The notes beneath the pieces were generated by a model. It was not told where the DNA came from. It was given only the letters and a program-made list of their open reading frames with translations, and ran no database searches. DNA of 64,000 bases, taken from assembly GCA_035498875.1 (NCBI GenBank), contig DATJZP010000061.1, positions 172,614-236,613 of the forward strand, in the 5' to 3' direction. Position 1 is the stretch's first letter. Every line of letters begins with the position of its first letter. Positions 10,926 through 50,842 of this stretch are shown in pieces. The position numbers and the translations under genes are program-made. This stretch comes from Myxococcota bacterium (GTDB taxonomy: Bacteria > Myxococcota_A > UBA9160 > SZUA-336).

Positions 10926-10951
10926 CTCGCCCGGGCGCCGATGGGAGGCCC

Positions 10952-25808: not shown

Positions 25809-26639
25809 TCAGCCTTCGGTCAGCTTTTTGTACGCGTGGTAGTGGCGGAGCGCGTCGCTCTTGCGGCCGAGTTTCTCGCACAGCGCGCCCAGGTTGAAGT
25901 GCGCATCGGCGAAGCTCGGGTCCAGCTCGAGCGCGCGCTCGTAGTGACTCGCGGCGGGCGCCGGGCCGCGCGCGTCCTCGAGCGCGAGCGCCAGGTTGAA
26001 GTGCACCACCGGATCGTCGGGGCTGCGCTCGAGCGCCTCGTGGTAGAGCCGCGCCGCCTCTTTCACGTTCCCAACCTGGTGCGCGATCCGGCCCAGGTTC
26101 ACCCAGGCGTCGACCAGGTCGGGGTCGAGCGCCAGCGCCTTGCCGTAGGCGTCGCACGCGCCCGCGGGGTCGTCGTCCTCGAGGTCGAGGCCGCGCTCGA
26201 ACTCGACCTGGGCCTGCGCGTGTGAGTCGTTCCCGGGCGCGGCGTGCCTGTGACTCGCGCGCAGCTCGGTGACTTGCTGCGCGAGCTCGTCCACGCCGAA
26301 GTCGAGCAGCACCTGGCCGGTCTCGGGCTCCCAAGCCGTGCCGCCGTCGCGCACGGCGACGCGCTTGCCGTCGGCGAAGATGCGCAGGCCCGAGATCGAG
26401 CGCTCGGGCGGCAGCTCACCCGCCAGCGTGGCTAGCGCGCGGCGCACGCGCGCCATCGGCACGTTCTGCGCGAGCAGCCCGGCCGCGGCGCGCAGCACCA
26501 CCAGCTCTTGGAACGAGAACGCGTAGCGTTTGCCGTCGCGCGCGGGCCGGCACAGGCCCGAGCGGACCAGCTCCCGAATGCGTGCCTCGGACAGGCCGAG
26601 AATCCGCGCCGCGTCGGTCGTCGACAAGTGTCGCCCCAC
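25809..26639 (-). CDS. MerR/excisionase-type HTH protein with C-terminal TPR repeats
   Basis: The N-terminus is LSTTDAARILGLSEARIRELVRSGL. At least three TPR-like units follow (AYGKALALDPDLVDAWVNLG, LYHEALERSPDDPVVHFNLA, HYERALELDPSFADAHFNLG). The start lies 10 nt after the ku stop. Confidence 0.75.
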   Translation of the reverse strand: MGRHLSTTDAARILGLSEARIRELVRSGLCRPARDGKRYAFSFQELVVLRAAAGLLAQNVPMARVRRALATLAGELPPERSISGLRIFADGKRVAVRDGGTAWEPETGQVLLDFGVDELAQQVTELRASHRHAAPGNDSHAQAQVEFERGLDLEDDDPAGACDAYGKALALDPDLVDAWVNLGRIAHQVGNVKEAARLYHEALERSPDDPVVHFNLALALEDARGPAPAASHYERALELDPSFADAHFNLGALCEKLGRKSDALRHYHAYKKLTEG

Positions 26640-26649
26640 GCTCCGGATA

Positions 26650-27504
26650 TTAGCTCGACGCCGCCTTCTTACCCTTCGCCTTGGCGCCTTTGCGCGCGGT
26701 CTCGGCCGCGGCCGGCTTCTCCTTGCCCGCGGCCTTCTCGGACAGACTCTTCTTCAGCGCCGCCACCAGGTCGATGATCTGCTCGCGCGCCTCTTCGGGC
26801 GGCGCGGCCACGATCTCTTCGCCCGCCACCTTGCGGTCGACGGCAGAGAGGATCTGGCGCCGGTACTCGTCCTCGTACTTCTGGGCTTCGAACTTGTCGT
26901 GAGAGAGCTGCTCGACCAGCTCCTTCGCGAGCTTCAGCTCGGCGTCCTTCAGCGCGATCGTCTTGTCGATCTCGATGTCCGAGAAATCACGCACCTCGTC
27001 CGCGTAGTAGAGGCCGTGCATCGCCAGGCCGTCGCCCATCGGGCGCAGCAGCACGAGCTGCAGGCGCCCGCGCGTCGAGTAACGCCCCACGGCCACGCGC
27101 TTGGTCTCGGTCATCGCGCGGTGCAGCAGCTGATACGCCTTGTGACCGCCCTTGTCGGGACCGAGCAGGTTCGACTTCTCGAAATACACCGGATCGACCT
27201 GTGAGATCGGCACGAACTCCTCGATCTCGATCGTCTGGTCGGTCTTGCGCTGCAAGCCGGCGAGCTCTTCGTCGGTCACCACCACATACTGGTCGCGGGC
27301 GTACTCGTAGCCCTTCACGGTGGCGTTGCGCTCCACGACTTCGCCGCAGGTCGCGCAGATGTATTGCTGCTTGAGGCGCGACTTGTCCTTCTCGTGCAGC
27401 ATGCTGAAGCGCACGTCCTTGCTGCTGGTCGCGGTGAAGACCTTGATGGGGATCGACACCAGACCGAACGAGATCGTCCCGGACGAGATCGCGCGCGCAG
27501 GCAT
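26650..27504 (-). CDS. ku: Non-homologous end joining protein Ku
   Basis: Sequence MPARAISSGTISFGLVSIPIKVFTATSS...VKGYEY..DQYVVVTDEEL, with a basic C-terminal tail. Confidence 0.9.
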   Translation of the reverse strand: MPARAISSGTISFGLVSIPIKVFTATSSKDVRFSMLHEKDKSRLKQQYICATCGEVVERNATVKGYEYARDQYVVVTDEELAGLQRKTDQTIEIEEFVPISQVDPVYFEKSNLLGPDKGGHKAYQLLHRAMTETKRVAVGRYSTRGRLQLVLLRPMGDGLAMHGLYYADEVRDFSDIEIDKTIALKDAELKLAKELVEQLSHDKFEAQKYEDEYRRQILSAVDRKVAGEEIVAAPPEEAREQIIDLVAALKKSLSEKAAGKEKPAAAETARKGAKAKGKKAASS

Positions 27505-28211: not shown

Positions 28212-30737
28212 ATGGCCGATCTGAAGACCTACCGCGAGAAGCGGGACCCGAACGCGACGCCGGAGCCGTTCGGACTCGACGGCGAGGTGCGCGCGCTGCC
28301 GCCCAACGCCGCGCGCGCGTTCGTGATTCAGCAGCACGCCGCGCGCTCCATGCACTGGGACTTTCGCGTCGAGATCGACGGCGTGCTGGTGAGCTTCGCG
28401 ATCCCGAAGGGACCCACGTTGGACCCGAAGGAGAAACGCTTCGCCGCGCAGACCGAGGACCATCCGCTCGAGTACGCGGACTTCGAGGGAGTGATTCCCA
28501 AGGGCAACTACGGCGCGGGAGCGATGATCGTCTGGGACCGCGGCAGCTATCACACGGTCGAGGGACGCTCGCCGGCCGAGGGTCTGGCCGAAGGCAAGCT
28601 CGACCTGCAGCTCGCGGGTCACAAGCTGCGCGGCCGCTTCACGCTGGTGCGCATGAAGGGCGAGGGCGGCAAGAGCTGGCTCTGGCTGTCGAAGCGCAAG
28701 GGCAAGCTGGCCGAGGGCGAGATCGTCGAGAACGAGGCCGAGTCGGTGCTGTCGGGGCTCACCATCGACGAGCTGCGCGACGGCGTGAGTCGCACCGCCG
28801 AAGTCGAGTCACTCACCGACGCAGCCGCCGCGCCGCGGCGCGCGCTGCCGGACGCGGCGCTCGAACCGATGCTGGCCGAGGTCGCCGACGACGCCTTCAC
28901 CCGCGACGGCTGGCTGTTCGAGCTGAAGTACGACGGCGCGCGCGTGGTCGCGCAAAAGCGCGCCGACGGCAGCGCGCGGCTGGTGGCGCGCAGCGGGCGC
29001 GACGTGACCGAGGCCTATCCGGAGATCACGCGCGCGGTCCGACACCTTCCGGTGTCGGAGTGCGCGATCGACGGCGAAGTGGTCGCGCTCGACGACTCGG
29101 GCCGCGCCTCGTTCGAGCGGCTGCAGCCCCGTTTCCGCAACCTGCCCACGCCGCGCAGCGAGGTCGACGTGCCGCTGGTCTTCTACGCCTTCGACGCGCT
29201 GTCGGCGGCGGGCCGGGACCTGCGCGGGCTGCCGCTGGTGTCGCGCAAGGAGATCCTCTCCCGCTTCGCGCCGCGGCTCGGCTTCGTGCGCTTCTCGGAC
29301 CACGTGCTCGGCGCCGGCCAGGCGCTGCTCGAGGCGGCGCGCGCCAACCAGCTCGAGGGCATCGTCGCCAAGCGCTGTGACTCGCGCTACGAGAGCGGCC
29401 GGCGCTCGAAGAGCTGGCTGAAGATCAAGCTGCCGCGCAGCTCGCTCCTGGCGATCGTCGGCTACAACCTTGGCAAGGGCTCGCGCGAGTCACTGGGCTC
29501 GGTGCTGCTGGCCTGGCGCCGCGATGGCGCCTGGACCTACGCGGGCAGCGCCGGCTCGGGCCTGGCCGAGGACTCGAGCGCGAAGCTGCAGCAGGCGCTC
29601 GATCCGCTGCGCGTGGCGAAACCCGAGTTCGCCGGCGAGCCGCCGAGCAAGGGCGTCGTCTTCGTGCGGCCCGAGCTCGTGTGCGAGGTGCGCTACACCG
29701 AAGTCACGAGCGCCGGAGGCCTGCTGCGCCAGCCGGTGTTCGTGCGCTTGCGGCCCGATGCCAAGCTCGAAGACTGCGTCGCCCCGGCGGAGCTGAACGC
29801 CGCCGCGCCGGAGGCCGTTCCTGCGCCCGCAGCCAGGAAGCCAGCGGACGACGGCCAGCCGCGACTCACTCGGCTCGAAAAGGTGTTCTGGCCGGTCGAG
29901 GGCTACACCAAAGGCGACCTGCTGGCGTACTACGAGGCGGTCTGGCCCTGGCTCGGTCCGTACCTGCGCGACCGGCCGCTGGTGCTCACGCGCTACCCCG
30001 ACGGCATCGAGGGCAAGTCCTTCTACCAGAAGAACGCGCCCGACTTCACGCCCGACTGGGTGCTGCGCCAGCAGATCGAGGGCACCGACTACTTCATCTG
30101 CAACGAGCTCCGGACGCTCCTGCACGTGATCAACTCGGGCGCGATTCCGCTCCACGTCTGGAGCTCGCGCGCCCAGGCGCTCGACCGCCCCGACTGGCTG
30201 ATCCTCGACCTCGACCCGAAGCAGGCGCCGTTCGCGCACGTGGTCCAGGTCGCGCGGCACATCCACGACCTGCTCGAGGAGCTTGGCGCGAGTCACTTCG
30301 TGAAGACCTCGGGCCAGGACGGGCTGCACGTGCTGCTGCCGCTGGGTCAGTCACTCGACCACGACGACGCGCGGCGCCTGGCCGAGGTGCTGGCGCGCGC
30401 GGTGGTGGCCGACCTGCCCAAGATCTCGACCATCACCCGGCCGGTCGCCGCGCGCGGGGAGCGCGTGTACGTCGACTATCTGCAGAACGGCCGCGGCAAG
30501 CTGATCGCATCGATCTTCTCGGTGCGGCCGCGCCCGCACGCGCCGGTCTCGATGCCGCTCGAGTGGAAGCAGGTGAGCGCGCGGCTCGACCCCACGAAGT
30601 TCACGATCAAGACCGCGCCCGCGCGGCTGGAGAAGAGCGGAGACCCATTCGCGGGCGTGCTCGGTCCCGGAGTCGACGCGGTCGGGCTCTTGGGCGCGCT
30701 GGTCGAGAGACTCTCGAAGAAATCCGCAAAGGAGTGA
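28212..30737 (+). CDS. ligD: ATP-dependent DNA ligase D (phosphoesterase-ligase-polymerase/primase)
   Basis: The PE domain reads FVIQQHAARSMHWDFRVEIDG. Ligase motif I is ELKYDGAR. The C-terminal Pol domain reads KVFWPVEGYTKGDLLAYYEAVWPWLGPYLRDRPLVLTRYPDGI. Confidence 0.9.
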   Translation: MADLKTYREKRDPNATPEPFGLDGEVRALPPNAARAFVIQQHAARSMHWDFRVEIDGVLVSFAIPKGPTLDPKEKRFAAQTEDHPLEYADFEGVIPKGNYGAGAMIVWDRGSYHTVEGRSPAEGLAEGKLDLQLAGHKLRGRFTLVRMKGEGGKSWLWLSKRKGKLAEGEIVENEAESVLSGLTIDELRDGVSRTAEVESLTDAAAAPRRALPDAALEPMLAEVADDAFTRDGWLFELKYDGARVVAQKRADGSARLVARSGRDVTEAYPEITRAVRHLPVSECAIDGEVVALDDSGRASFERLQPRFRNLPTPRSEVDVPLVFYAFDALSAAGRDLRGLPLVSRKEILSRFAPRLGFVRFSDHVLGAGQALLEAARANQLEGIVAKRCDSRYESGRRSKSWLKIKLPRSSLLAIVGYNLGKGSRESLGSVLLAWRRDGAWTYAGSAGSGLAEDSSAKLQQALDPLRVAKPEFAGEPPSKGVVFVRPELVCEVRYTEVTSAGGLLRQPVFVRLRPDAKLEDCVAPAELNAAAPEAVPAPAARKPADDGQPRLTRLEKVFWPVEGYTKGDLLAYYEAVWPWLGPYLRDRPLVLTRYPDGIEGKSFYQKNAPDFTPDWVLRQQIEGTDYFICNELRTLLHVINSGAIPLHVWSSRAQALDRPDWLILDLDPKQAPFAHVVQVARHIHDLLEELGASHFVKTSGQDGLHVLLPLGQSLDHDDARRLAEVLARAVVADLPKISTITRPVAARGERVYVDYLQNGRGKLIASIFSVRPRPHAPVSMPLEWKQVSARLDPTKFTIKTAPARLEKSGDPFAGVLGPGVDAVGLLGALVERLSKKSAKE

Positions 30738-30740
30738 ACG

Positions 30741-31343
30741 ATGGATGCGATCGAAGCCCTGACCACGACCCGTGCGATGCGCCGGCTCAAGCCCGACCCC
30801 GTTCCCGAAGCGCTGCTCAAGCAGGTGATTCACGCCGCCACTTGTGCCTCGAGTCCGGGCAACTCCCAAGGCTGGGACTTCGTGGTGGTGCGCGACCCGG
30901 GCCAGCGCAAGCGCATCGGCGACGTGGTGCGCGAGCAGGTGCTGCCCCGGCTGGTGCCGATTCCCGAGGCGGCGGGCCCGGGCGCCTCGCGCGATCGCAT
31001 GCTGCGCGGCGCGCATCACCTGGCGAATCACTTCGACCAGGCGCCGGTGGTCGTCTTCGTGTGCGGGGCCTCGATCTACCCGCCCGGGAACCCGATGGAG
31101 CTGTTCGTGCCCGCGGCGCTCTACCCGGCGGCCCAGAACTTGATCGTGGCGGCGCGTGCGCTCGGCCTGGGCACGGTCTTCACCACCTTCCACATGATGT
31201 GCGAGCCCGAGATCCGCGAGATACTCGGGGTGCCGCAGACTCACCGGATCCAGGTCACGATCCCGCTGGGCTGGCCCGAGGGCCGCTTCGGCCCGGTGAA
31301 GCGCAAGCCGGTGGAGCAGGTGATTCACTGGGACCGGTTCTAG
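30741..31343 (+). CDS. Nitroreductase family protein
   Basis: Sequence MDAIEALTTTRAMRRLKPDPVPEALLKQVIHAATCASSPGNSQGWDFVVV. Confidence 0.8.
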   Translation: MDAIEALTTTRAMRRLKPDPVPEALLKQVIHAATCASSPGNSQGWDFVVVRDPGQRKRIGDVVREQVLPRLVPIPEAAGPGASRDRMLRGAHHLANHFDQAPVVVFVCGASIYPPGNPMELFVPAALYPAAQNLIVAARALGLGTVFTTFHMMCEPEIREILGVPQTHRIQVTIPLGWPEGRFGPVKRKPVEQVIHWDRF

Positions 31344-31412
31344 CGAGCTCGCGGGCGCGGGTTGGCGCCTGCGCCCGGGCCTGTGCGAAGATCGCCAGGA
31401 ACGGAGCACCCC

Positions 31413-32030
31413 ATGATTCCCGCCCGCGAAGCACTCACTCTCTTGCGCGAAGGCAACCGCCGGTTCGTCTCAGGCGTGCGCAACGCCGACACGCTGCTCA
31501 CTCACACGCGCCGGGCGGAGCTGGCCAAGGCGCAGGAGCCGTTCGCCATCATCCTGGGCTGCTCCGACTCGCGCGTTCCGGCCGAGATCGTGTTCGACCA
31601 GGGGCTGGGCGACCTGTTCGTGATCCGCGTCGCCGGCAACATCGTCGCGCCGTCGCAGATCGGCAGCGTCGAGTTCGCGGCCGAGCGCTCGGGCTCGCGG
31701 CTGGTGGTGGTGCTGGGACACACGCAGTGCGGCGCGATCCTGGCCACGCTGGAGGCGCTGCGCGAGCCCAGCGCCAACCAATCGCGCAACCTGCGCTCGA
31801 TCGTCGACCGGGTGCGGCCCTCGGTCGAGGGCCTGTATTCGGTGCTGCGTCACGACTCCGAGGCACTGGTGCGCGCCGCGGTGCGCGCCAACGTGGGCAT
31901 CTCGGTCAGTCACTTGCGCCACGGCTCCGAGCTGCTCGAGAGCTTGATCGAGCGCGATGGCTTGATCGTCGTGGGCGCCGAGTACGACCTCGAGACGGGC
32001 GTGGTCGAATTCTTCGACGTCGGCGAGTGA
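31413..32030 (+). CDS. Beta-class carbonic anhydrase
   Basis: The ATG at 31413 gives LREGNRRFVSG...ILGCSDSRVPAEIVFDQGLGDLFVIRVAGN...VLGHTQCGA. Confidence 0.85.
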   Translation: MIPAREALTLLREGNRRFVSGVRNADTLLTHTRRAELAKAQEPFAIILGCSDSRVPAEIVFDQGLGDLFVIRVAGNIVAPSQIGSVEFAAERSGSRLVVVLGHTQCGAILATLEALREPSANQSRNLRSIVDRVRPSVEGLYSVLRHDSEALVRAAVRANVGISVSHLRHGSELLESLIERDGLIVVGAEYDLETGVVEFFDVGE

Positions 32031-32031
32031 C

Positions 32032-32484
32032 GTGACGAGGCTCGTCCTCGCTCTCGCGGCCGCACTGTGGGCGGCCGCGCCCGACCAGCCGGCCGCGCCG
32101 ACCGAGCTGGCGGTGGGCCAGCACTGGACCTACCAGACGCGCCCCGAGGACGCCGGCTCGACCCTGGTGATCGGCAAGATCGACGAGGTCCCCGAGATCG
32201 GGAAGGTCATCCACGTGCACGTGATCGACGTGAACATCCCGAACTCGAAGGCGCCGGGCGGTATGAGTCACACGATCAGCCACATGCCCTTCACCGAAGA
32301 TGCCTTCCGGGCCAGCATCAAGAGCCTGATCGGCACGGCTCCCGCAGACGGTCGCTTCGACGCGGGCTACGACGCCTGGAAGAAGGCCAAGGGCGGCGTG
32401 TTCACCGTGCCCGTGAGCCAGGCGGTCGACGCGATGGACAAGACCATAAACCCACCGCCGGATGCGAAGCCGCCGGCGAAGTAG
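32032..32484 (+). CDS. Secreted hypothetical protein
   Basis: The signal-like N-terminus is MTRLVLALAAALWAAAP. I recognise no family. Confidence 0.55.
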   Translation: MTRLVLALAAALWAAAPDQPAAPTELAVGQHWTYQTRPEDAGSTLVIGKIDEVPEIGKVIHVHVIDVNIPNSKAPGGMSHTISHMPFTEDAFRASIKSLIGTAPADGRFDAGYDAWKKAKGGVFTVPVSQAVDAMDKTINPPPDAKPPAK

Positions 32485-32487
32485 TTC

Positions 32488-34071
32488 TTAGTCATAGATG
32501 CCGTCCGCGAACCACGAGTCACTCGCGAGGTCGTGGTACAGGCGGTACAGGCCGCCGTCGGAGAGCTCGACGTCCCAGTAGTCGCGCGCGAAGCGGCTCT
32601 CGCCCCACCACTCGCCGAACAGCCGCCAGGGGCCGGCGGTGTGGAGCACGCGTCCGCCTTCGCCCTCCTCCGCTTGCGGCGAGAGTGACACGTAGACCGG
32701 CGGATCGGAGCCGGGCACCGCGCCGCCGGGCCGCGCGGGCCTGGCGCGCCCCGCTCCGTACACGCGCACCGGCCGCGGGGGGCGGAGCGCGCGCAGGGCG
32801 ATCACGCCGCGGCGTGGCGGCTCGCGGCTCTCGCGTGTAGCCGACTCGCGCCGCCGCTCGTGCGCGAGCCGGAACTCGACCAGCGCGGCCGCGTCCATCT
32901 GATGGGTGTCTTCGACGCGCGGCGCGCCGACCTGGCCCGCGCCGCAGAGTGACTCGATGCGGGCGATCGCCACCGCCAGCTCGCCCGGCGACGGCAGCGG
33001 CGGCAGGAACAAGTCGAGCTGCGCGGTCTCGACGCTGTCCGGGGTCGCGATCGCGCGGATCGACAGCACGCCCTCGGCGGGCGGATGGCGCTCGAGCTCG
33101 AGCCGCGCCAGCCCGAGCAGCACGTGGGTCTCGAGCGTGGGCGCGGCCAGGCCGAGCTCGCGCACCACCTGCGCGCCGCTCTCGAGCCCGAGCTCGAGCC
33201 GCAGCCGGCGCAGCGCCAGCCCGCGCAGGCGCACGCGCCGCACGAGTCTCTCGCACAGCGCGCGCAGCAGGAACGACAGCGGCTCGAGGTTCGCGATCGC
33301 CCAGTCCGACTCGGCGACCTCTTCGAAGCGCAACAGCGGCGGATGCTGGCGGAAGGGTGCGAGGTCCTCGCCGTTGGCCCGGCGCGCCAGCCGCACGCCC
33401 GCTTCGCCGAGCCGTCCGCCGAGGGCGTCGCGCGGGATGCGCGCGAGCTGCCCGAGCGTGCGCACGCCCCAGTGAGTGAGTCGGCTGGCCAGCTCGGTCG
33501 GGGGATCGAGCAGGTCGAGCGGCAGCGGCACGAGAAAGCTCGCGGCCTCCTCGGCGCGCAGGATGCGACCGCCCTCGCGGTGGCGCGCCGCCAGCTCGGC
33601 GACCGTGCGGGTGGGACCGATGCCCAGGCGCACGCCGGCGGGCGCGCTGGGGCCCGCATCGCGCGCGAGCGCGAAGCCCACGTCGCCGAGCCGGGTCTCG
33701 AGCGCCGTGAGCAGCCCGCGTTCCGTGGGAAAGAGTGACTGCGTACCGGCCAGGTCGATGAACACCAGGCCGGGCGAAGCCGACATCACGCGCGGCGAGA
33801 CCGAGGTCGCCACGTCGAGCAGCGCCTGCTCGGCCGAGCGCATGCCTTCGAGCGAGAAGCTGCGCACCTCGAGCGCGGGCTCGACCGCTCGCGCCTGCGC
33901 GACGGTCAGCCCTCGGAAGCTCCCCGCGACGATGGTCGGGCTCTGCGTGGAGCGCGCTTTTCGCTCGCGCTGCTCCACGACCGCCACCCGCTTCGCAGCG
34001 AGCTCGGGCTCCGCCCGAAGCGCTGCCGCGAGTGGCAGATCCGCGAGAACGAGACAGGCAAAGCGTTCCAT
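32488..34071 (-). CDS. imuB: ImuB (Y-family polymerase-like mutasome subunit)
   Basis: The N-terminus MERFACLVLADLPLAAALRAEPEL is typical of ImuB. The protein is 527 aa with a Y-family fold-like middle (GIGPTRTVAELAARH, HWGVRTLGQLARIP). Confidence 0.8.
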   Translation of the reverse strand: MERFACLVLADLPLAAALRAEPELAAKRVAVVEQRERKARSTQSPTIVAGSFRGLTVAQARAVEPALEVRSFSLEGMRSAEQALLDVATSVSPRVMSASPGLVFIDLAGTQSLFPTERGLLTALETRLGDVGFALARDAGPSAPAGVRLGIGPTRTVAELAARHREGGRILRAEEAASFLVPLPLDLLDPPTELASRLTHWGVRTLGQLARIPRDALGGRLGEAGVRLARRANGEDLAPFRQHPPLLRFEEVAESDWAIANLEPLSFLLRALCERLVRRVRLRGLALRRLRLELGLESGAQVVRELGLAAPTLETHVLLGLARLELERHPPAEGVLSIRAIATPDSVETAQLDLFLPPLPSPGELAVAIARIESLCGAGQVGAPRVEDTHQMDAAALVEFRLAHERRRESATRESREPPRRGVIALRALRPPRPVRVYGAGRARPARPGGAVPGSDPPVYVSLSPQAEEGEGGRVLHTAGPWRLFGEWWGESRFARDYWDVELSDGGLYRLYHDLASDSWFADGIYD

Positions 34072-40206: not shown

Positions 40207-40263
40207 GCCGCGAGCCTACACGGGCCGCACCGATCGGTCACGCCGCAGCTATGCTTGGGCGCG

Positions 40264-40893
40264 ATGGACGGCATCCACGACCTCGGCGGCATGGGCGGCT
40301 TCGGCGCGGTCGAGATCGAGCCGAACGAGCCCCGGTTCCACGAGCCCTGGGAGGCGCGTGCGTTCGCGCTGAATGCCCTGGGCATCCGCATCGGCGCGTA
40401 CAACGTCCACGAGTACCGACACGCGGTCGAGCGCCTGGACCCGGCGCACTATCTGGCCGCGAGCTACTACGAGCGCTGGCTCACCGGCGTGGCCTCGCTC
40501 CTGGTGGAGAAGGGCGTGGTGATTCGCGCCGAGCTCGAGCGCCGCGCCGGCGGCCGCTTTCCGCTGGCGCGTCCCGCAGCCCGGATGACCGCCGAGCCGG
40601 TTCGGGAGTCGAGCGCGCCGCGCTTCGCGGCCAGTGACTGGGTGCGCGTGGCCGATCACCACCCGCGCGGACACACGCGCGCGCCGCGCTACGTGCGCGG
40701 GCGGCGCGGCCAGGTGCTGCGCGTGTCGCGCCGCTTCGAGCTGCCCGACCTCGCGGGTCACGCGCTGCCCGCGCCGCTCCAGGCCACCTACCACGTCGAG
40801 TTCGCGGCGCGCGAGCTCTGGACCGACTCGGCCGAGGCACGCGAGAGCGTGGTCGTCGACTTGTGGGAGCGTTATCTGGAGCCGGCGCCGTGA
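40264..40893 (+). CDS. nthB: Nitrile hydratase beta subunit
   Basis: Sequence MDGIHDLGGMGGFG...FHEPWEARAF...YYERWLTGVASLLVEKG. Confidence 0.85.
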   Translation: MDGIHDLGGMGGFGAVEIEPNEPRFHEPWEARAFALNALGIRIGAYNVHEYRHAVERLDPAHYLAASYYERWLTGVASLLVEKGVVIRAELERRAGGRFPLARPAARMTAEPVRESSAPRFAASDWVRVADHHPRGHTRAPRYVRGRRGQVLRVSRRFELPDLAGHALPAPLQATYHVEFAARELWTDSAEARESVVVDLWERYLEPAP

Positions 40894-41480
40894 CTCGCGA
40901 GCACGAGAAGATCGCGCCGATCGCCGAGCGCGTGCGCGCGCTCGAACAGGCGCTCTCCGACCAGGGCCTGATCCCCGAGCGATTTCTCGAGCGGCGGGTC
41001 GAGCAGGCCGAGGAGAACTTCGACTGGCACAACGGCGCGCGCGTGGTCGCGCGGGCCTGGGTCGATCCGGCGTTCCGCAAGCGGCTGCTCGAGGACGGCT
41101 CGAGCGCCAGCGCCGAGCTCGGCCTGCGCAGCACCAACGAGTATCTCGTGGTGCTCGAGAACACGCCCGCCGAGCACAACGTGATCGTGTGCTCGCAGTG
41201 CTCGTGCACCGCCTGGACGGTGATCGGCCTGCCGCCCGACTGGTACAAGAGCCCCGAGTACCGGGCGCGCGTCGTGCGCGAGCCGCGCGCGGTGCTGCGC
41301 TCGCTCGGGCTCGAGCTGCCCGAGTCGGTGGCGGTGCGCGTCTGGGACACCAGCGGCGAGACCCGCTACATGGTCCTGCCCGAGCGGCCCGCGGGCAGCG
41401 ACGGCTGGAGCGAGGAGCGGCTCGCGGCGATCGTGACTCGCGAGTCGCTGATCGGGGTGGCGCGCGTGGAAGCGAAGTAG
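40890..41480 (+). CDS. nthA: Nitrile hydratase alpha subunit (metal-site motif CSQCSC)
   Basis: Sequence VIVCSQCSCTAWTVIGLPPDWYKSPEYRARVVREPRAVL. GTG at 40890 overlaps the beta-subunit stop. Confidence 0.85.
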   Translation: MTREHEKIAPIAERVRALEQALSDQGLIPERFLERRVEQAEENFDWHNGARVVARAWVDPAFRKRLLEDGSSASAELGLRSTNEYLVVLENTPAEHNVIVCSQCSCTAWTVIGLPPDWYKSPEYRARVVREPRAVLRSLGLELPESVAVRVWDTSGETRYMVLPERPAGSDGWSEERLAAIVTRESLIGVARVEAK

Positions 41481-43858: not shown

Positions 43859-44653
43859 TCAGATCTCCGAGGTGCGTCGGCGCAGGAACCCGAAGGCCAC
43901 GACGCCGAGACCCAATATCCCCGGCAGCAGCCACTGCGCGGCGCCCGGCAGCGCCGGGACCGGCAGCAGGTTCACCACCGTGAACGCTGCCGTGGCGTTG
44001 TTCACGAGCGTCGCGGCGCCCGGCGTGACGGCGTAGTCGGCGGCATTGTTCGTCCCCGCCGGGCAGTTCTGCGGTTGGAACTTCAGCGCGGTGGTGGAGG
44101 CCGACGGCAGCACCGCGCCGAATGCCGGATTGGCATGCACGGTCGTGAAGTTCGTCGTGACTACGGCGTCCGAGCCGGTGTACGAGGCGCCGCCCCAGCT
44201 CACGCGCCACCAGGTGCTGCCCTGGCCCTCGAACGTGAGTGACCCGGCGGCGAGAAACGCCGGCGGAATCGGGATCATGTCGAACGCGCCGGTGATCGGC
44301 GGGGACGCCTTCGCGCGCATCGCAGGCGTGACGAGCAGAATCTCTTTGCAGTTACCGGGGGTTGGAGCGACTGCCGCGCCACCGTCGAAGGTCGAGAACG
44401 TCGACAGCGTGGTCGCGTTGTTGCCCGCGGCGTCGCGCACGATCAGTTGCCCGTTGCCGATCACGAACTGGTTTCCCGCGAAGCGCATCTTCAGCTGGAT
44501 GGCTTGCGCGGTCGTGTCTCCACCGACGCCACCCACCACCTGGTCGATCTGCATCTGATGGAATGCAGCAAGCGCGGGACGCGGAGCGAAGAGCAGAGCA
44601 GCGGCAAGAAGGCACACGTATCCGATGCGGTCGAGTCCGATGTGATGCGTCAT
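43859..44653 (-). CDS. Secreted protein with PEP-CTERM-like C-terminal anchor
   Basis: The signal peptide precedes AFHQMQIDQVVGGVGGDTTAQAIQLKMRF. The C-terminus PVPALPGAAQWLLPGILGLGVVAFGFLRRR is a Pro-rich motif plus TM plus basic cluster. It is the last gene of the porin-cytochrome string. Confidence 0.6.
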   Translation of the reverse strand: MTHHIGLDRIGYVCLLAAALLFAPRPALAAFHQMQIDQVVGGVGGDTTAQAIQLKMRFAGNQFVIGNGQLIVRDAAGNNATTLSTFSTFDGGAAVAPTPGNCKEILLVTPAMRAKASPPITGAFDMIPIPPAFLAAGSLTFEGQGSTWWRVSWGGASYTGSDAVVTTNFTTVHANPAFGAVLPSASTTALKFQPQNCPAGTNNAADYAVTPGAATLVNNATAAFTVVNLLPVPALPGAAQWLLPGILGLGVVAFGFLRRRTSEI

Positions 44654-44711
44654 GGATCCCCTCCCGAGTTGCGAACCATACCACTTACGGCTCGAGCCGT
44701 GGGGCGGATTC

Positions 44712-47180
44712 TCACCAGCCGTCCCCAAAACCGACCTGCAACGCGATGCCGTAAAACCCAGCTTGATAATCCGAATCTTGATGTCCGAAGTAGAGCCGGC
44801 GCCCGATCAGCGTGGGCAGCCCTGTCTGATGGAAGTCATCCACTCCGGAGAGGTCGTAGCGGTAGAAGAAGCGCAGCGCGGTCGATTTGCGCAACGCGAT
44901 GCGCAAGCTGGTCTCGAGCGTGTGATCGCGGTTGCGCAGCCGCGGCAGATGGTCGGGCACCGGATGAGTCGGATCCTGACTCGCGAGCACCGCATCCGAG
45001 ACGAAGGAGAGATTCTCATCCTCGCGAAAGACCAGGAACGTGTAGCGCGTGTCGAGCGAGATCCACTGCAGCGGATGCAAGCTGAAGCCGCCGCCCCAGC
45101 CGACGCCGTCGCCGTTGCTCTTCACGCCCCACTCGTTGCTGAACGGGAAGTTGGGGCCGCCCGCGTCCCCGTTCGAAGAGCTGGCGAAGCCGCGGATCGT
45201 CTGCATGCCGCGGTCGTGATGCTCGAACGAGACGAACGCGTTCGCGCTGAAGATGGGCGAGGGCTGCACGTTCCAGTCGGCCTCCACGTCGCGCGAGCGG
45301 TCGCTCGTGAGCCCAAAGCCGGAGCCATAGTTGTCGTTGCGTAGCCGCGCGGCGAGTGACAGATCGGAGAATTCTCCGAGGGCGAACACCAGCCGTCCGT
45401 TGATGCGCTGGCCGACGAGATCCGCGAGGTCGGGACGCACCAGCTGATTCAAGTTGTGCGCCTGATTTCCGTCCGGGAAGAGCGGCACGAAGCCCGCGAG
45501 CGCCGCGGTCGTGTACTTGTAGTAGACGTTGTAGTTCACGTCGCCGCCGTCGCGGTTCGTGAACTTGTACGAGACGCGCGCGGTCAGCCACGAGAACGGC
45601 CGCGAGTTGAACGACACGGTCGCGCGCTGCTCGCGCGTCTGCGGCCGCTCGGAGACGACGCGGTCCACGTCCTCCTGCTCGAGCAGGAAGTCGAACGAGC
45701 TGCGCCAGGGGATCGCCAGCGACGCGCCGGCGCTGATCGTCTGGCGTGTCTCGCCCCACGGAATCGTGCGGTAGCGCCAGGCGCTGCCCGGCACGCCCGG
45801 CTCGAACACGCCCGTGTAGTCCTGGCCCAGCACCGAGCCGTGGCCGCCGTCCTCGACGATGTAGCCGAACTGGCCGGTCGCGGGGTTGAACGCGAAGTAG
45901 TTCGTGAGCGTGTCGAAGTTCGTGATCCGGTAGCCGGCGCGCAGCCGCAGCGGCCGCCACGGATTGGTGTCGACCTTCAGATCGACCAGCAGGTTGTCCA
46001 CGCGCGCGTGCGCGCTCTTGGTGGAGAGCGACCCGGCGTTGTTCCAGTCACTCAAGTTGATCGTGCCGATCGTGCCGCTCGAGATCGTGGGCGGAATCAG
46101 ATTGTCGTTCTGCGTGCTGCGAGACCACGAGATCGCGGTCGTGAAGCGCGTGCGCAGCGGCAGACTCAGCCCGAAGTCGGCGTGCAGGTTGTGCCAGTCG
46201 TTGTCGGGCGCCAGCGCCTGGCGCGCCTGCTCGATCTGCGTGGTGCCGGTGCCGAGGAACGGCTGCGCGATCGTGAGTGACTGGTTCAGGTTGCGGTAGA
46301 ACGAGCCGTTGTAGGCCAGATTCAGCTGTGCGAGCGCGCCGCCCCACTCGAGCCGCGCGCTGGCCTTCTGGGTGTGATCGTCGATCGGCTGCGGGACTTC
46401 GAACGACCCGCCGAGGCTGGTCGAGTAATCGGGATAGGCGAAGCCGACCGCGCTCGGCAGCGCGCCCTTGCGATCCTCCATGCCGTACTGCGCCACGAGC
46501 GACAGCGTGGGCAGCACGCGCGCGCGCAGCTCCAGGTTGGTGCGGTCGCGCTGCACCGCGATCGTGCCCTCGGGATGGTCGGCGAGCGCGGCCGCAATCT
46601 CCGCCGGCGTGTTTCCCGTGGCCACGAGACTCTTGGGCAGGCCCAGGAAGTCGCTGCCGCCGCCCGTCCACAGCAGGGTCGCGTCGGAGGCGTACTTGTG
46701 CGGCACGCCGCTGAACGAGCCGCGGAAACGCAGCCAGCCGGCGCGGCTCGCCTCGAGGTCGTAGAACTGGTCGTCGCGGCCGACGCTGCCGCCGCGCAGC
46801 ATGAGATAGTCACCCGACTCGGGGCGCCACAGCTCGAGGTTCAGGCCGTCGAGCATGAAGCCGTCGTTGCGATCGACGTACTTCGTGTAGCGAGTCTCGG
46901 TCTCTTCGCCGCCTCCGCCGAAGAAATAACCCGCTTCGAGCGCGCCGCGCGCCTTCCAGCCGTTGCCGATGTCGTCGAGCTCGTGCAGATCGGGCGGGTA
47001 GGGATAGAGAAACCCGCTGGGCGTGCGGTTGCGATAGGGAATCAACAGCGACATGCCCTGCGGATCGGGGTTCTCCCAGACCTCGGCGTTGCCGGGATGG
47101 AGTGAATCGCGCGGTGGATCGGCCGCGGCGCTGCGGGCGGCGATCACGAGCAGCACGAGCGCGAGCACCGTCTTGCGCAT
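44712..47180 (-). CDS. MtrB/PioB/MtoB-family outer-membrane beta-barrel (decaheme-associated porin)
   Basis: 822 aa with a signal peptide and alternating beta-strand pattern ending ...GIALQVGFGDGW. It follows the decaheme gene after a 10-nt gap. The N-terminal region YTKYVDRNDGFMLDGLNLEL is family-typical. Confidence 0.8.
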   Translation of the reverse strand: MRKTVLALVLLVIAARSAAADPPRDSLHPGNAEVWENPDPQGMSLLIPYRNRTPSGFLYPYPPDLHELDDIGNGWKARGALEAGYFFGGGGEETETRYTKYVDRNDGFMLDGLNLELWRPESGDYLMLRGGSVGRDDQFYDLEASRAGWLRFRGSFSGVPHKYASDATLLWTGGGSDFLGLPKSLVATGNTPAEIAAALADHPEGTIAVQRDRTNLELRARVLPTLSLVAQYGMEDRKGALPSAVGFAYPDYSTSLGGSFEVPQPIDDHTQKASARLEWGGALAQLNLAYNGSFYRNLNQSLTIAQPFLGTGTTQIEQARQALAPDNDWHNLHADFGLSLPLRTRFTTAISWSRSTQNDNLIPPTISSGTIGTINLSDWNNAGSLSTKSAHARVDNLLVDLKVDTNPWRPLRLRAGYRITNFDTLTNYFAFNPATGQFGYIVEDGGHGSVLGQDYTGVFEPGVPGSAWRYRTIPWGETRQTISAGASLAIPWRSSFDFLLEQEDVDRVVSERPQTREQRATVSFNSRPFSWLTARVSYKFTNRDGGDVNYNVYYKYTTAALAGFVPLFPDGNQAHNLNQLVRPDLADLVGQRINGRLVFALGEFSDLSLAARLRNDNYGSGFGLTSDRSRDVEADWNVQPSPIFSANAFVSFEHHDRGMQTIRGFASSSNGDAGGPNFPFSNEWGVKSNGDGVGWGGGFSLHPLQWISLDTRYTFLVFREDENLSFVSDAVLASQDPTHPVPDHLPRLRNRDHTLETSLRIALRKSTALRFFYRYDLSGVDDFHQTGLPTLIGRRLYFGHQDSDYQAGFYGIALQVGFGDGW

Positions 47181-47190
47181 CGCCCTGCTC

Positions 47191-48138
47191 CTAGCGGTGG
47201 AACCGCGGGCCCGACGGTGAGTTCGAGCCGTGGATCTGGGAGTGACAGTTCAGGCAGCCGCGGTTCATCAACCGGTCGTCGGGCGCCCCCGAGGTCGCCA
47301 TGTTCTGCTGAGTCACGAGCGCCGACGGGTGACCGAAGTTCGGGTTGTCGATCGGCGAGTGACATTCCTGGCACAAGAGCGGCAGCTCGGTGACCAGCAG
47401 CCGCTCGTGGTTCGAGCCGTGCGGCTTGTGGCAGTTGAGGCAGCTCTCGCGCACCGGCTGGTGCTCCCACAGGAAAGGGCCGCGCTTCTCGGCGTGACAG
47501 CCGGTGCAGAGCTGGTTGACGTCGTCTGCCTTGATCAGCGGCGAGGTCTGCGAGCCGTGCGGGTTGTGGCAGTCGACGCACGAGATCTTGCCCTCGAGCA
47601 GCGGCATGTGGGAGCGCTTCTGGAAGTCCGCGCGCTGCTGCGGGTGGCAGGTGAAGCAAGTCTCATTAGCGTTCTTCGCGCGCAGCAGTGACTGGCCCGA
47701 GGTCTGAGCCATCGGGTTGTGGCAGTCGCTGCAGGCCAGGCCGCGCAGCTCGTGAGTGGACCCGATCCAGTACAGGGTGGCGCCCGCGCGATGACACTCG
47801 AGGCACATCGCGTTCATGGCCTCGGGCGCGTAGCTCGAGTTCCGCGTGAACGAGACGATCGTCGACGGGTTGGGGTCGCCGACGTGCTTGCCGCCCGGAC
47901 CGTGACAGCTCTCACAGGTGTGCTTCTCGAGCTCGGTGCGCGGGTTCGCGGTGAACGCGCGCGCGTGCACGGTGCGCTGCCAGTGCGCGGTCTCTACGCT
48001 GTGGCAGCCCATGCAGATGGCGTCGCCCACGTAGGCGACGTCGTTCCCCGGCTTCTCGACGAGCTCGTCGGGCGGCTGCGCACACGCCACGAGCGCGAGC
48101 GAAGCGATCCCCAGGAGCCGCCACCAGACCCTTCCCAT
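47191..48138 (-). CDS. Periplasmic decaheme c-type cytochrome (MtrA/DmsE/PioA/MtoA family)
   Basis: Ten CXXCH motifs: CMGCH, CESCH, CLECH, CSDCH, CFTCH, CVDCH, CTGCH, CLNCH, CQECH, CLNCH. The ATG at 48138 gives a signal peptide. About 315 aa. Confidence 0.9.
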   Translation of the reverse strand: MGRVWWRLLGIASLALVACAQPPDELVEKPGNDVAYVGDAICMGCHSVETAHWQRTVHARAFTANPRTELEKHTCESCHGPGGKHVGDPNPSTIVSFTRNSSYAPEAMNAMCLECHRAGATLYWIGSTHELRGLACSDCHNPMAQTSGQSLLRAKNANETCFTCHPQQRADFQKRSHMPLLEGKISCVDCHNPHGSQTSPLIKADDVNQLCTGCHAEKRGPFLWEHQPVRESCLNCHKPHGSNHERLLVTELPLLCQECHSPIDNPNFGHPSALVTQQNMATSGAPDDRLMNRGCLNCHSQIHGSNSPSGPRFHR

Positions 48139-48185
48139 ACGAAGGGATGTTACGAGCCGAAGGGGCGGATCGGTTTTTGTTTTCT

Positions 48186-49667
48186 CTAACTGCGCGCGCG
48201 TACGTCGACGTCGAAGACGCCGGTCAGCACGCGGCCGCCGCTGCGCACCTGCACCCACATGCGGTACTGACCCGGCTGCGGGAACGCGTAGGGGAATGCG
48301 ACCTCGCCGGGCGCGGGGCCGCGCGCGAGCGGCATCGGCGACACCGTTCCGTCACGCTTCGCGAGCATCTCGGCCGCGGCCATCGAGATCGAGCCCGCCG
48401 GATGCAGGTGGGTGAATACGGCGCCGTCGCTGCGGCGCAGCGCCAGGTGCCCTTCCATTCCCATGTAGGGCTCGAGCGCGAGCGGGGCGCCGTCGGCGCC
48501 GAACGCGGCGAAGCGCAGCGTGGTGTCGCGGTCGGCGACCAGCGCGTCGGTCGTGCGCAGCTCCATGTGACCCCCACCCATCAGCGGGGCGCGCGCGCCC
48601 GGCACCGAGAGGCCCGTGTGCCAGGAATCGTCGTAGTCGAGCGCGGTCGGCGCGGCGCCGTTCGCCGCGGCGGTCGTCGGCGAGAGACACAGCACGGAGC
48701 TGCCGGGCGTGGCCGCGGCCTGCAGGGCCGCGCCGACCGGCGGCGGCAGATTCACCCGACTCACCAGGGTCTCGCTCGAGCCGTCCTCATGAGTGACTTC
48801 GGCGTAGAGCTGGTAGGTGCCGCCCGGCAGTGGCGGCAGCATGCCCTCGAAGCTGGCGGGGTCGCGCCGCACCGGGTGCAGGTGCGCGAAGGCGTCGAAG
48901 TCGGGCTCGCGCACCAGGAACAGGTGCATCAGCTTGCCGTGATCGGTCACGAGCGTGTCCCAGGCGGCGCTCGCCGGAGCATCGTGCGCGGGCGAGAGCT
49001 GCAACACGTTCTGCGCCGCGTCGCCGCGCACCACGGAAGTCACCGGCAGCGGCTTCGAGAGCGCGTTCGCGAAGTCGCGGTCCATCTGCTGCCAGCGGTA
49101 GTTCCCGCCGTACACCGCCGCTCCGCAGACGAGCGCCATGAGCGCGCCCGCGCGCCGCCCGCGACCCGAGTCCCGCGCCGCGGCCGCGACCAGCCCGACG
49201 GCGAACGCGCACAGCACGATGCCGAGCGCGACCAGAGTGACTCCCAGCGCCGGCGGCATCACCGGCCGCGCCAGCGCGGCTGCCTGCAGCGGCACGGCGA
49301 CCCGGCCGCCGCCGCGCGCGCTCTCGAGCCGGATCTCCACGCCGTAGGAGCCGCGGCGCAGCAGCCAGAACGTGGCGTTCCAGAGCTGCGGGTCACCCGC
49401 CACGCGCGTCGCGGCGCTCGGCGGCGGAGCGGCCTCGGCGCCCGCGTCGAGGAACGCGGGCTGCACTGCGACGGCAGTCACATCGCCGTCGCTGACTCGG
49501 ATGTCGGCCTGCGCGAGGCCGGGGAAGGTCTGCGGCGGGCGGATCACGACCCGCAGCGGATGGACGCCGGCGCGCCCTTCGAAGAAGACGTTGGGGCTGC
49601 CCACGTGCGCGCTCGCGCTCGAGACCGCGCAGAGACATGCACAAGCCAGGAGCAGCGCCGACCTCAC
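48186..49667 (-). CDS. Signal-peptide protein with a mature N-terminal His domain, one TM segment and two tandem HLHP-motif domains (putative metal-binding)
   Basis: GTG at 49667 gives VRSALLLACACLCAVSSASA|HVGSPNVFFEG. The mid TM is VTLVALGIVLCAFAVGLVAAA. The repeats are KLMHLFLVREPDFDAFAHLHP and MEGHLALRRSDGAVFTHLHP. It overlaps the upstream gene by 4 nt. Confidence 0.6.
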   Translation of the reverse strand: MRSALLLACACLCAVSSASAHVGSPNVFFEGRAGVHPLRVVIRPPQTFPGLAQADIRVSDGDVTAVAVQPAFLDAGAEAAPPPSAATRVAGDPQLWNATFWLLRRGSYGVEIRLESARGGGRVAVPLQAAALARPVMPPALGVTLVALGIVLCAFAVGLVAAAARDSGRGRRAGALMALVCGAAVYGGNYRWQQMDRDFANALSKPLPVTSVVRGDAAQNVLQLSPAHDAPASAAWDTLVTDHGKLMHLFLVREPDFDAFAHLHPVRRDPASFEGMLPPLPGGTYQLYAEVTHEDGSSETLVSRVNLPPPVGAALQAAATPGSSVLCLSPTTAAANGAAPTALDYDDSWHTGLSVPGARAPLMGGGHMELRTTDALVADRDTTLRFAAFGADGAPLALEPYMGMEGHLALRRSDGAVFTHLHPAGSISMAAAEMLAKRDGTVSPMPLARGPAPGEVAFPYAFPQPGQYRMWVQVRSGGRVLTGVFDVDVRARS

Positions 49668-50767
49668 GCGCGCACCTCGCGCAGCGCGCCCAGCCACAAG
49701 CCCGCGCGCGCGGCCACGATCGCGACGAGCACTGCCACGGCGCCACTCACCAGGCCGAGGTCGGGCGACATGAAGCCCCAGTAGGCGGTGCGCGCCGTCG
49801 GATCGATGCGCAGGAAGAACGGCCAGTGGCGCCCGCCGCCCGCGAAGAACCAGTCGTCGGCGACGGGCGAGAGCAGGAAGGCCGAGAAGAGCCACTGAGT
49901 CACGGCGAACAGCGCGAAGAACGCGCAGCCGCACTCGAGCGCCGAAGCCCAGCCGCCCGTGCTGCCGGCGCGCGACGGAATGCCGTGCAGCAGGCCGTCG
50001 AGCGCGAGCGCCGGCACCACCAGGAGCAGCGGGAAGGGGGGCGGCAGCAGATGGTCGAGCGCGTTGTAGACCGGGCCCGCCTGGGGCGTCGCGGCGAAGC
50101 GCGGCAGGAGCCAGACCATCGAGCCCACGAACGCGAGATAGCCGAGCGCCGCCAGCGTCGCAGGCGCGCGCATCCGGCCGGCCGCCGACTGCGCGGTGAG
50201 CACCAGCGGGTAACTCGCGCAGGCGAGCAGGTAGAAGAGCTCCGAGTGCTGGCGGTTCGCGAAGCTCTGAGCCGTGGTCACGACCGAGATCATGGCCAGG
50301 AGCGCTCCCCCGGCAAGCGCGGCGCGCCGGGCGCGCGACGGCGTGTCCTGGTGCGCGAGCAGCGTCAGCCAGGCGCCCGCCACGACCGCGAAATAGGCCA
50401 GCGCCTTGGCGATCTGCGGCGGGTGCCAGATGCCCGCGGCCAGCCCGTAGCTCGCCTGCCACCAGCGGTCGAACAAGAGCGCCGTCACGAACGCGAGCCC
50501 GCCCCAGAGCACGATCCACGCGCCGAGCGGGGCGCGCACGCGACCCAGCGCGACGCCCCCTACACCGCTCTGCGTAGCCAGCGCCACGATCCGCAGCGCC
50601 GCCGCCGCCGCGAGCGCCACCGCCGCGTAGTTGGCCGCGTGCGGCGGACCGAAGAACGCATCCACGCCGATGGTCGACTCCCAGGAGAAGTCCCAGAAGA
50701 GAGTCAGGGGAACCGCGATCGCGGCGACGAGCAGGACGGCTTCGGTCGGCATGCGCGCGCGCATCAT
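49664..50767 (-). CDS. Polytopic inner-membrane protein of unknown function (about 9-10 TM)
   Basis: Sequence MMRARMPTEAVLLVAAIAVPLTLFWDFSWESTIGVDAFFGPPH... Several conserved-looking His or Trp residues lie in loops. It is the first gene of the minus-strand string. Confidence 0.6.
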   Translation of the reverse strand: MMRARMPTEAVLLVAAIAVPLTLFWDFSWESTIGVDAFFGPPHAANYAAVALAAAAALRIVALATQSGVGGVALGRVRAPLGAWIVLWGGLAFVTALLFDRWWQASYGLAAGIWHPPQIAKALAYFAVVAGAWLTLLAHQDTPSRARRAALAGGALLAMISVVTTAQSFANRQHSELFYLLACASYPLVLTAQSAAGRMRAPATLAALGYLAFVGSMVWLLPRFAATPQAGPVYNALDHLLPPPFPLLLVVPALALDGLLHGIPSRAGSTGGWASALECGCAFFALFAVTQWLFSAFLLSPVADDWFFAGGGRHWPFFLRIDPTARTAYWGFMSPDLGLVSGAVAVLVAIVAARAGLWLGALREVRA

Positions 50768-50784: not shown

Positions 50785-50842
50785 TCGCGCGGGCACCCTA
50801 CCCGCGCTCCCGATGATCGCGCGGGCACCCTACCCGCGCTCC
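50785..50842. repeat. Two tandem copies of the 26-nt unit TCGCGCGGGCACCCTACCCGCGCTCC, each carrying the inverted repeat GCGCGGG-N7-CCCGCGC
   Basis: The copies at 50785-50810 and 50817-50842 are identical, with a 32-nt period. They lie between the divergent starts at 50767 (minus) and 50882 (plus). Confidence 0.8.

Follow-up and report, generated by a model that had tools for sequence, protein, structure and literature searches.

To our knowledge, the characterized conduits of the MtrAB type are all wired to partners that carry heme or iron–sulfur centers (CymA, MtrC, MtoD or PioC), with one exception, the DmsAB molybdoenzyme. Here we describe a five-gene cluster in a 64-kb stretch (64,000 nucleotides, hereafter the window) of contig DATJZP010000061.1 from a Myxococcota bacterium, in which the genes for an MtrAB-type conduit are flanked on one side by a pair of genes that we call g1 and g2 and on the other by a gene, g5, for a heme-free surface protein. 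Gene neighborhoods in related genomes identify g5 as the tightest partner of this conduit. Profile alignments suggest that g1 is probably a remote homolog of the copper-binding core of PmoC, the membrane subunit whose relatives are known from methane and ammonia oxidation. The sequence inspected comprised the window and a set of compared loci (given L-numbers below), and what is said of cymA and mtrC applies to the window. Our functional statements are drawn from sequence motifs, predicted structures and gene neighborhoods in uncultured genomes. The five genes, in the order in which they would be transcribed, are as follows.

g1: 49664..50767, (-), 367 amino acids (aa), inner-membrane protein with ~10 helices, probable remote PmoC/AmoC-like protein of subtype II
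g2: 48186..49667, (-), 493 aa, membrane-anchored periplasmic protein
MtrA: 47191..48138, (-), 315 aa, MtrA/DmsE-family decaheme c-type cytochrome with a predicted lipoprotein signal (LVAC)
MtrB: 44712..47180, (-), 822 aa, MtrB/PioB-family outer-membrane beta-barrel of a separate Myxococcota clade
g5: 43859..44653, (-), 264 aa, secreted or cell-surface protein with a signal peptide and a PEP-CTERM-like anchor

The cluster resembles MtrCAB of Shewanella (6R2Q) in that the gene for a decaheme MtrA lies directly upstream of the gene for an MtrB/PioB barrel and an extracellular protein is encoded alongside. It differs in lacking an MtrC/OmcA decaheme, the adjacent surface protein g5 being heme-free, in the predicted lipoprotein nature of its MtrA and in the absence of cymA from the window. 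Like MtoAB–MtoD–CymA of Sideroxydans and PioABC of Rhodopseudomonas, it has an MtrAB-type conduit of two parts and lacks an outer decaheme. However, the partner genes are not those of these Fe(II)-oxidation conduits, neither MtoD, CymA nor the high-potential iron–sulfur protein (HiPIP) PioC was found in or near the cluster, and the clade represented in the window is Myxococcota-specific. DmsEFAB of Shewanella is also comparable, as an MtrAB-type module serving a non-cytochrome extracellular partner, and NCBIfam places the window MtrA in the DmsE family. The Shewanella partner is the DmsAB molybdoenzyme, whereas the partner here would be the 26-kDa g5.

All five open reading frames of the minus-strand string described in the initial annotation were found at the coordinates listed above and with tight spacing. 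A public record of the identical sequence calls the same five products (367, 493, 315, 822 and 264 aa), and the closest named homologs of the window genes come from Myxococcota metagenome-assembled genomes (MAGs). The g1 and g2 genes overlap by 4 nt and have a GTGA in common, MtrA and MtrB are separated by 10 nt that include a GGAG, and a 58-nt gap with the ribosome-binding site GGGAGGGG 5' of the ATG separates MtrB from g5. The 47-nt gap between g2 and mtrA is the least compact of the junctions and has no obvious ribosome-binding site. Because the junctions are compact, co-transcription of the five genes is likely. A scan for promoters and terminators was uninformative in this DNA, which is ~71% GC. 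The spacer between MtrB and g5 (44655–44711) contains a perfect palindrome, GGCTCGAGCC, which does not look like a terminator because no T-run lies 3' of it.

MtrA and MtrB are readily recognized as members of their families. MtrA has 10 CXXCH motifs in 315 aa, scores 256.1 bits against TIGR03508 (DmsE family), above the curated cutoff of 192.2, and matches MtrA of the solved MtrCAB structure (6r2q_A) with an E-value of 3e-58. Its gene adjoins that of the barrel, which matches PF11854 over residues 97–816 (E 4e-88, 297 bits, cutoff 23). The narrower TIGR03509 is missed slightly (224.8 against a cutoff of 240), and in a phmmer search the protein was too divergent to match MtrB of 6R2Q. The earlier descriptions of a decaheme MtrA-like cytochrome and of an MtrB/PioB-like 822-aa barrel are thereby upheld, the PF11854 match spanning the whole barrel. 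Judged by these matches, MtrA and MtrB are a standard porin–cytochrome wire through the outer membrane and the conduit is genuine. The further claim that no CymA, MtrC or PioC accompanies it holds for the window. Apart from MtrA, no open reading frame with more than one CXXCH was found in six frames of the whole 64 kb, and the 10 kb flanking the cluster on each side contain no listed HiPIP or NapC/NirT family. The remainder of the window holds DNA-repair genes and genes for miscellaneous enzymes, with no other gene for a cytochrome, a HiPIP or a NapC-type protein.

Homologs of MtrB form a clade at 52% identity or more, followed by a gap down to 41% or less, and on account of this gap we treat the MtrAB of the window as a separate clade. 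Its named members are all Myxococcota or “Deltaproteobacteria” MAGs. Every clade MtrA with a readable N-terminus carries the lipobox L-x-A-C (in the window, LVAC followed by AQPP, 48070–48138), which is absent from outgroup MtrAs, where ordinary signal peptides are found; the MtrA of this clade is probably lipid-anchored. The mature N-terminus of MtrB (residues 22–33, 47100–47120) reads PPRDS-x-H...E and is invariant within the clade. It differs from the CXXC motif carried by Shewanella MtrB.

The surface protein g5 is 26 kDa, with a sequence-predicted beta-rich core and no recognized cofactor domain. When a g5 profile was searched against the PDB and Pfam, only sorting tails were matched, and the core belongs to no known family in these databases; NCBIfam gave no family for g5 either. 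Alignment of 28 homologs left just five invariant residues, among them His32, which comes after an AxA signal-peptidase motif in 24 or more of the 28, and because of this position the mature protein is predicted to begin Ala-Phe-His. Such an X-X-His start resembles an amino-terminal Cu(II)- and Ni(II)-binding (ATCUN) motif, and we regard it as a putative site for these metals in which His would be the third residue. The initial annotation had called g5 PEP-CTERM-like. In the family, 13 of the 28 aligned homologs match PF07589 (PEP-CTERM); the tail of the window protein (VPALPG, a C-terminal hydrophobic helix and RRR) has a similar build and gives no Pfam match. Other homologs end in type IX secretion system (T9SS), Calx-beta or dockerin modules, and the range of these endings points to a cell-surface or extracellular location. 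One public record starts g5 at an internal Met (that of MQIDQ), giving a 231-aa product from which the signal peptide and the invariant His are lost; the 264-aa form is supported by another record and by a strong ribosome-binding site.

On the other side of the conduit, the window g1 matched no Pfam or NCBIfam family. Its AlphaFold2 model (pLDDT 93) has 10 helices, and a Foldseek search of this model against the PDB found nothing significant, only local matches to AmoC at a probability of 0.6–0.66. A profile of the g1 family searched against 177,635 PDB sequences matched AmoC/PmoC chains only (E 0.0017 to 0.049). AmoC was likewise the most recurrent weak match of the family in both Pfam and NCBIfam, 13 of 52 members matching AmoC (PF04896) and 10 of 52 matching TIGR03078, with a best E-value of ~1e-3. 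No g1 reached the threshold of either model, the family members being sub-threshold and the window g1 unmatched. In an hhalign comparison with PmoC (sequence checked against 7ev9_C), the family aligned over g1 residues 26–120 with 61.8% probability and an E-value of 7.6e-5.

The copper ligands of PmoC are Asp156/His160/His173 at CuC and Asn227/His231/His245 at CuD (PMC12576850). All six of these positions are in register in the alignment, which covers a four-helix region, and the spacing is identical both within and between the motifs. D26, consensus H30 and H43 of g1 fall on the CuC ligands, and D100, consensus H104 and consensus H118 fall on those of CuD. The family consensus reads D-x3-H-x12-H at CuC and D-x3-H-x13-H at CuD, the latter where PmoC has Asn-x3-His-x13-His. 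The two ligand hairpins are an internal repeat within g1, and the motifs lie at predicted periplasmic helix ends. The window protein is of a second subtype (subtype II), and its CuC- and CuD-equivalent positions are occupied by D26-E30-H43 and D100-Q104-H115-Q118. We consider g1 a probable remote homolog of the copper-binding core of PmoC. It is not a member of the AmoC/PmoC family, because the thresholds are missed, a PmoA-like part is lacking and E30, Q104 and Q118 occur in the window protein. A PmoA-like region in g1 was considered and rejected (hhalign 0.4%, using an unverified PmoA query). The cluster also differs from operons of copper membrane monooxygenases (CuMMOs) in having no PmoA or PmoB homolog, and in that g1 has ~10 helices with an internal repeat.

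The second gene of the pair, g2, has more than 2129 homologs, every one of them named “hypothetical”, and no match to a Pfam or NCBIfam family. Its signal peptide ends in SASA and the mature protein begins HVGSP, the His being residue 21. In the AlphaFold2 model this N-terminal His is followed by a beta-sandwich, two transmembrane helices (139–165 and 169–198) with a basic loop between them, and two further beta-sandwich domains. The distal beta-sandwiches carry the motifs D-H-x4-H-x13-H-x-H and Y-M-x-M-x2-H-x12-H-x-H-x6-M, and HLHP occurs at residues 262–265 and 420–423. Ten residues are invariant over 82 species (H21, D242, H243, H248, H262, H264, M404, H407, H420 and H422), eight of them His, including the mature N-terminal one. 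This strongly bears out the earlier suggestion of a probable metal-binding protein. The mature N-terminal His and the two HLHP repeats noted at that time were also found; the accompanying description of g2 as exported has to be changed, given the two central transmembrane helices.

The layout of g2 is that of PmoB/AmoB, with a signal peptide, an N-terminal His and a pair of transmembrane helices linking two beta-domains in the periplasm, and topology is all that the two have in common. Homology to PmoB was rejected, with an hhalign probability of 0.08% against verified PDB sequences and no PDB profile match. Comparison with CopC, CopD and DUF1775 (YcnI) gave nothing significant, a single member matching CopC at E 0.15. 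The sole PDB profile match is a 110-aa “copper resistance protein”, at a weak E-value of 0.05, and a whole-chain Foldseek search of the model against the PDB returned generic multi-Ig matches only (TM ~0.15). The pair resembles the copper uptake proteins CopC–CopD and YcnI–YcnJ and the “anglerase”–permease fusions (PMC12537917) in having an Ig-like periplasmic domain with an N-terminal His, tethered to the membrane beside a polytopic membrane protein, with copper-chaperone genes in the neighborhood. In that work, N-terminal-His Ig-like domains attached to membrane permeases bound Cu(II) with nanomolar affinity (PMC12537917). The accessory proteins of the window differ from CopC, CopD, DUF1775 and HupE/UreJ in having no sequence similarity to them, and g2 has two extra His/Met-rich domains.

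Carriers of g2 were sought in one genome per GTDB species. At least 131 species carry the g1–g2 pair, in Myxococcota, Verrucomicrobiota, Acidobacteriota and Gemmatimonadota; MAGs assigned to Prosthecobacter and Chthoniobacter are among the carriers. Of the 79 loci retrieved, 77 have a g1 homolog immediately upstream of g2, which makes g1–g2 a fixed two-gene module. MtrAB adjoins the module in Myxococcota only, and most g1–g2 modules occur without it. Clustering of all open reading frames around 83 g2 loci left only three recurrent real neighbors: g1 (80 loci), the g5 family (34) and a CusF–SCO1/SenC fusion (21). Outside Myxococcota, g5 is found beside g1–g2 in 27 loci that lack MtrAB, mostly from Verrucomicrobiota and usually with g5 divergent from g1; the CusF–SCO1/SenC fusion is adjacent in 18 of these 27. 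Several orders of Verrucomicrobiota show this linkage of g5 with g1–g2, and the genes occur in three different arrangements. Three loci (L043, L045 and L046) have co-directional g1–g2–g5, which is the Myxococcota order minus MtrAB. The contigs of L045 and L046 are labeled as Bifidobacteriaceae/Bifidobacterium MAGs, and a diderm-type module of such composition suggests that they were mis-binned. In Acidobacteriota, g1–g2 is neighbored by genes for an M28 peptidase, an iron-containing alcohol dehydrogenase, a histidine kinase and a TonB receptor, an ordinary set conserved by descent that we judged uninformative.

Within the MtrAB clade, the five-gene order is present in at least 12 loci, over which MtrB identity falls to 56% and g5 identity to 42% (Myxococcota contigs L001/L014, L005/L109, L013, L028, L036, L044, L093–L098, L102 and L103). 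L014 lies on contig CAVPRM010000002.1 (2.79 Mb) of a related, near-complete MAG. A metagenome scan with MtrB placed g5 downstream of MtrB in all clade loci with enough downstream sequence except L105. The g1–g2 pair lies upstream of MtrAB in most clade loci, the exceptions being L009, L101 and L105, and in L009 and L101 there is MtrAB–g5 without g1–g2. The outgroup MtrAB loci, whose MtrB identity is at most 41%, have none of the three accessory genes nearby. As far as gene neighborhoods go, the tightest partner of MtrAB is g5, and g5 is a hub, found with g1–g2 in one phylum, with MtrAB in another and with both in most Myxococcota. Because g5 adjoins g1–g2 in loci without MtrAB, the conduit sits between genes that are partners elsewhere. 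This gene order points to a partnership of g1–g2 and g5 that existed first and that MtrAB later joined, by recruitment or by insertion between the partners.

The initial annotation had read the locus as a variant electron-transfer module and had asked whether its accessory genes are syntenic with mtrAB in any other genome. They are, in the 12 or more loci above, and this favors that interpretation in part. One refinement is that g1–g2 is an autonomous module and not an inner-membrane link dedicated to Mtr, given that four phyla carry the pair, mostly without MtrAB.

Residues as well as genes vary with the neighborhood. Where g5 is not nearby, the ligand set of g1 is D-H-H/D-H-H, and where g5 is present it is D-E-H/D-Q-(H115)-Q. 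The latter set was seen in g5-linked loci in 31 of 31 cases readable at position 30 (~97% over the four positions) and in only ~7 of 46 loci without g5. A Cys pair is present in all 24 MtrB-linked g5 homologs and in none of the other 17. Mtr-linked g5 would have gained this Cys pair and the clade MtrA its lipobox, changes that appear to track gene content.

On balance, we lean toward reading the five genes as one functional unit that spans the cell envelope, and that unit is probably copper-related. The copper link comes from four independent features, the PmoC-type motifs of g1, the N-terminal His and His/Met sites of g2, the X-X-His start of g5 and the CusF–SCO1 neighbor (21 loci), and this evidence specifically for copper refines the earlier guess of metal binding. 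As the mechanism, we tentatively propose reductive copper capture, which we favor among several possibilities. Cell-surface g5 would bind Cu(II) through its N-terminal X-X-His, and MtrAB would conduct electrons outward and reduce Cu(II), either held there or close by, to Cu(I). Since an X-X-His site holds Cu(I) poorly, copper would be released from g5, captured by periplasmic g2 and handed on to the membrane sites of g1, for import or for the loading of membrane copper enzymes. In Verrucomicrobiota the relay from g5 to g1–g2 would operate without MtrAB, beside the CusF–SCO1 chaperone. MtrA might receive its electrons from g1–g2 itself or from a quinol dehydrogenase encoded elsewhere, and the flow could run in either direction; we infer some electron coupling between g1–g2 and MtrA.

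A number of observations weigh against this copper-linked reading. Every metal assignment is motif-derived. The similarity of g1 to PmoC is marginal (HMMER E ~1e-3, hhalign 62%), statistically weak though specific; a profile made from the N-terminal regions of subtype I g1 proteins alone did not improve the PmoC E-value, and the window g1 has E or Q where PmoC has His. g2 has no sequence homology to PmoB, CopC or YcnI, the cleavage site of g5 is predicted by the -3/-1 rule only, and no CusF–SCO1 gene lies near the Myxococcota locus. The reduction step of the scheme is weakened by the difficulty of reducing copper once an X-X-His site has bound it, and neither a route for copper across the outer membrane nor an electron donor to MtrA was identified. 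With regard to synteny, the clade members L009, L101 and L105 lack g1–g2 beside MtrAB, and L001, L005 and the window have flanking genes in common, so that synteny within Myxococcota is partly a matter of vertical inheritance.

This last point is the starting place for the view that there is no functional relation at all, only a lineage-specific juxtaposition by vertical inheritance with coincidental copper-like motifs. The flanks conserved in L001 and L005 do mean that part of the synteny is phylogenetic inertia, and the metal evidence does come entirely from motifs. Against it stand a linkage of g5 with g1–g2 found repeatedly, in three arrangements, among Verrucomicrobiota orders, residue changes in g1, g5 and MtrA that track gene content, and eight His of g2 that are invariant across four phyla, and we consider this explanation improbable. 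A stronger competitor, though still somewhat unlikely in our estimation, holds that MtrAB–g5 is a self-contained extracellular electron conduit of the MtoAB/PioAB or DmsEF type for iron, manganese or humics. Here g5 would be a non-redox surface cap, an adhesin or a substrate-binding partner, g1–g2 an independent copper-handling neighbor, and a CymA-, ImcH- or cytochrome bc-type protein with its gene in another part of the genome would connect the conduit to the quinone pool. In its favor, the inspection covered just 64 kb of the genome, MtrA and MtrB are typical of their families, L009 and L101 have MtrAB–g5 without g1–g2, g1–g2 is mostly found without MtrAB, and the junction between g2 and mtrA is the least compact (47 nt) and has no clear ribosome-binding site. 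It is g5 that argues against such independence: it neighbors both g1–g2 and MtrAB, across phyla, it follows g1–g2 without MtrAB in L043, L045 and L046, and its presence co-varies with the ligand residues of g1. The five genes are also kept together in most clade loci, down to 56% MtrB identity.

The remaining alternative takes the resemblance to monooxygenase subunits further and makes g1–g2 a two-subunit copper oxidoreductase, distantly related to CuMMOs, that would be the inner-membrane redox partner of MtrA. It would oxidize quinol in place of CymA, or pass electrons imported by MtrAB to O2 or another acceptor, with g5 as the surface donor or acceptor site. Particulate methane monooxygenase (pMMO) takes electrons from quinols in vitro, which we count in favor of this alternative. 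The g1 family consensus retains both PmoC copper sites, which in pMMO are part of the catalytic subunit, g2 resembles PmoB in topology and has an N-terminal His as well as H-x-H motifs, and in a window without a heme-type quinol dehydrogenase the five genes would be self-sufficient. Yet there is no PmoA equivalent (hhalign 0.4%, with the same unverified PmoA sequence), g2 is not a PmoB homolog and carries its H-x-H motifs in domains other than that of the N-terminal His, and the window g1, being of subtype II, has lost three of four His ligand positions (E30, Q104 and Q118) while gaining H115. Metal trafficking would explain the CusF–SCO1 neighbor and the Met/His motifs just as well. We rate an oxidoreductase of this kind as unlikely. 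The same doubt applies to its most far-reaching form, in which g1–g2 would be an unrecognized and widespread two-subunit CuMMO relative that in Myxococcota forms the inner-membrane end of the MtrAB wire; the PmoC-like subunit would keep CuC and CuD, the other subunit would have the PmoB-like layout, the heme quinol dehydrogenase would be replaced and copper proteins would stand at both ends of the wire.

In the literature searched, neither the g1, g2 and g5 families nor this Mtr clade is described. To the MtrAB family the conduit adds a new member. Its constant companion g5, which is heme-free, is new as well, and so are the predicted lipid modification of its MtrA and the link to a widespread module, so far undescribed, with a PmoC-like membrane subunit. 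If the copper-linked reading is right, a conserved MtrAB clade with heme-free copper-type partners would widen the roles of such conduits to metal acquisition or to electron transfer via copper centers. We know of no methane or ammonia oxidizers in the phyla that host g1–g2. The g1 family would be the first widespread PmoC-like protein outside those oxidizers to keep both disputed copper sites, and would offer a comparative handle on which pMMO copper site matters and on the origin of the enzyme. Since the g1–g2–g5 module is common in soil Verrucomicrobiota and Acidobacteriota, its function is also ecologically relevant.

The region upstream of g1 contains one further element.

23-nt direct repeat: 50785..50839, (.), two perfect copies of GCGCGGGTAGGGTGCCCGCGCGA with a period of 32 nt

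It sits in the divergent region between g1 and a gene for a major facilitator superfamily (MFS)–acyltransferase protein, with two matches found against none expected by chance, and it overlaps the upstream start that the public gene call gives to the MFS gene. The repeat was absent from all 114 other loci, related loci included, and may be an operator, possibly a strain-specific one. The divergent neighbor (50813/50882–52801, (+)) encodes an MFS_3/MFS_1 transporter fused to an acyltransferase domain and resembles a lysophospholipid transporter–acyltransferase. L001 and L005 have it in the same place, which extends the conservation to the flanks of the cluster.

Farther away, nitrile hydratase beta and alpha genes lie beside an aminotransferase gene at 40255–41480 (+), 2.4 kb downstream of the cluster and with no apparent link to it. 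DNA-repair genes are gathered at 1220–14904 and 28212–34071 and include an AddAB-like helicase–nuclease pair, a DnaE2-type polymerase, an ImuB-like IMS protein and LigD. Immediately upstream of the MtrAB–g5 cluster of L009 there are DnaE2/ImuB/RecA-like genes. A MerR-type helix-turn-helix domain fused to tetratricopeptide repeats is encoded at 25809–26753 (-); MerR regulators are commonly metal sensors, with copper among the metals sensed.

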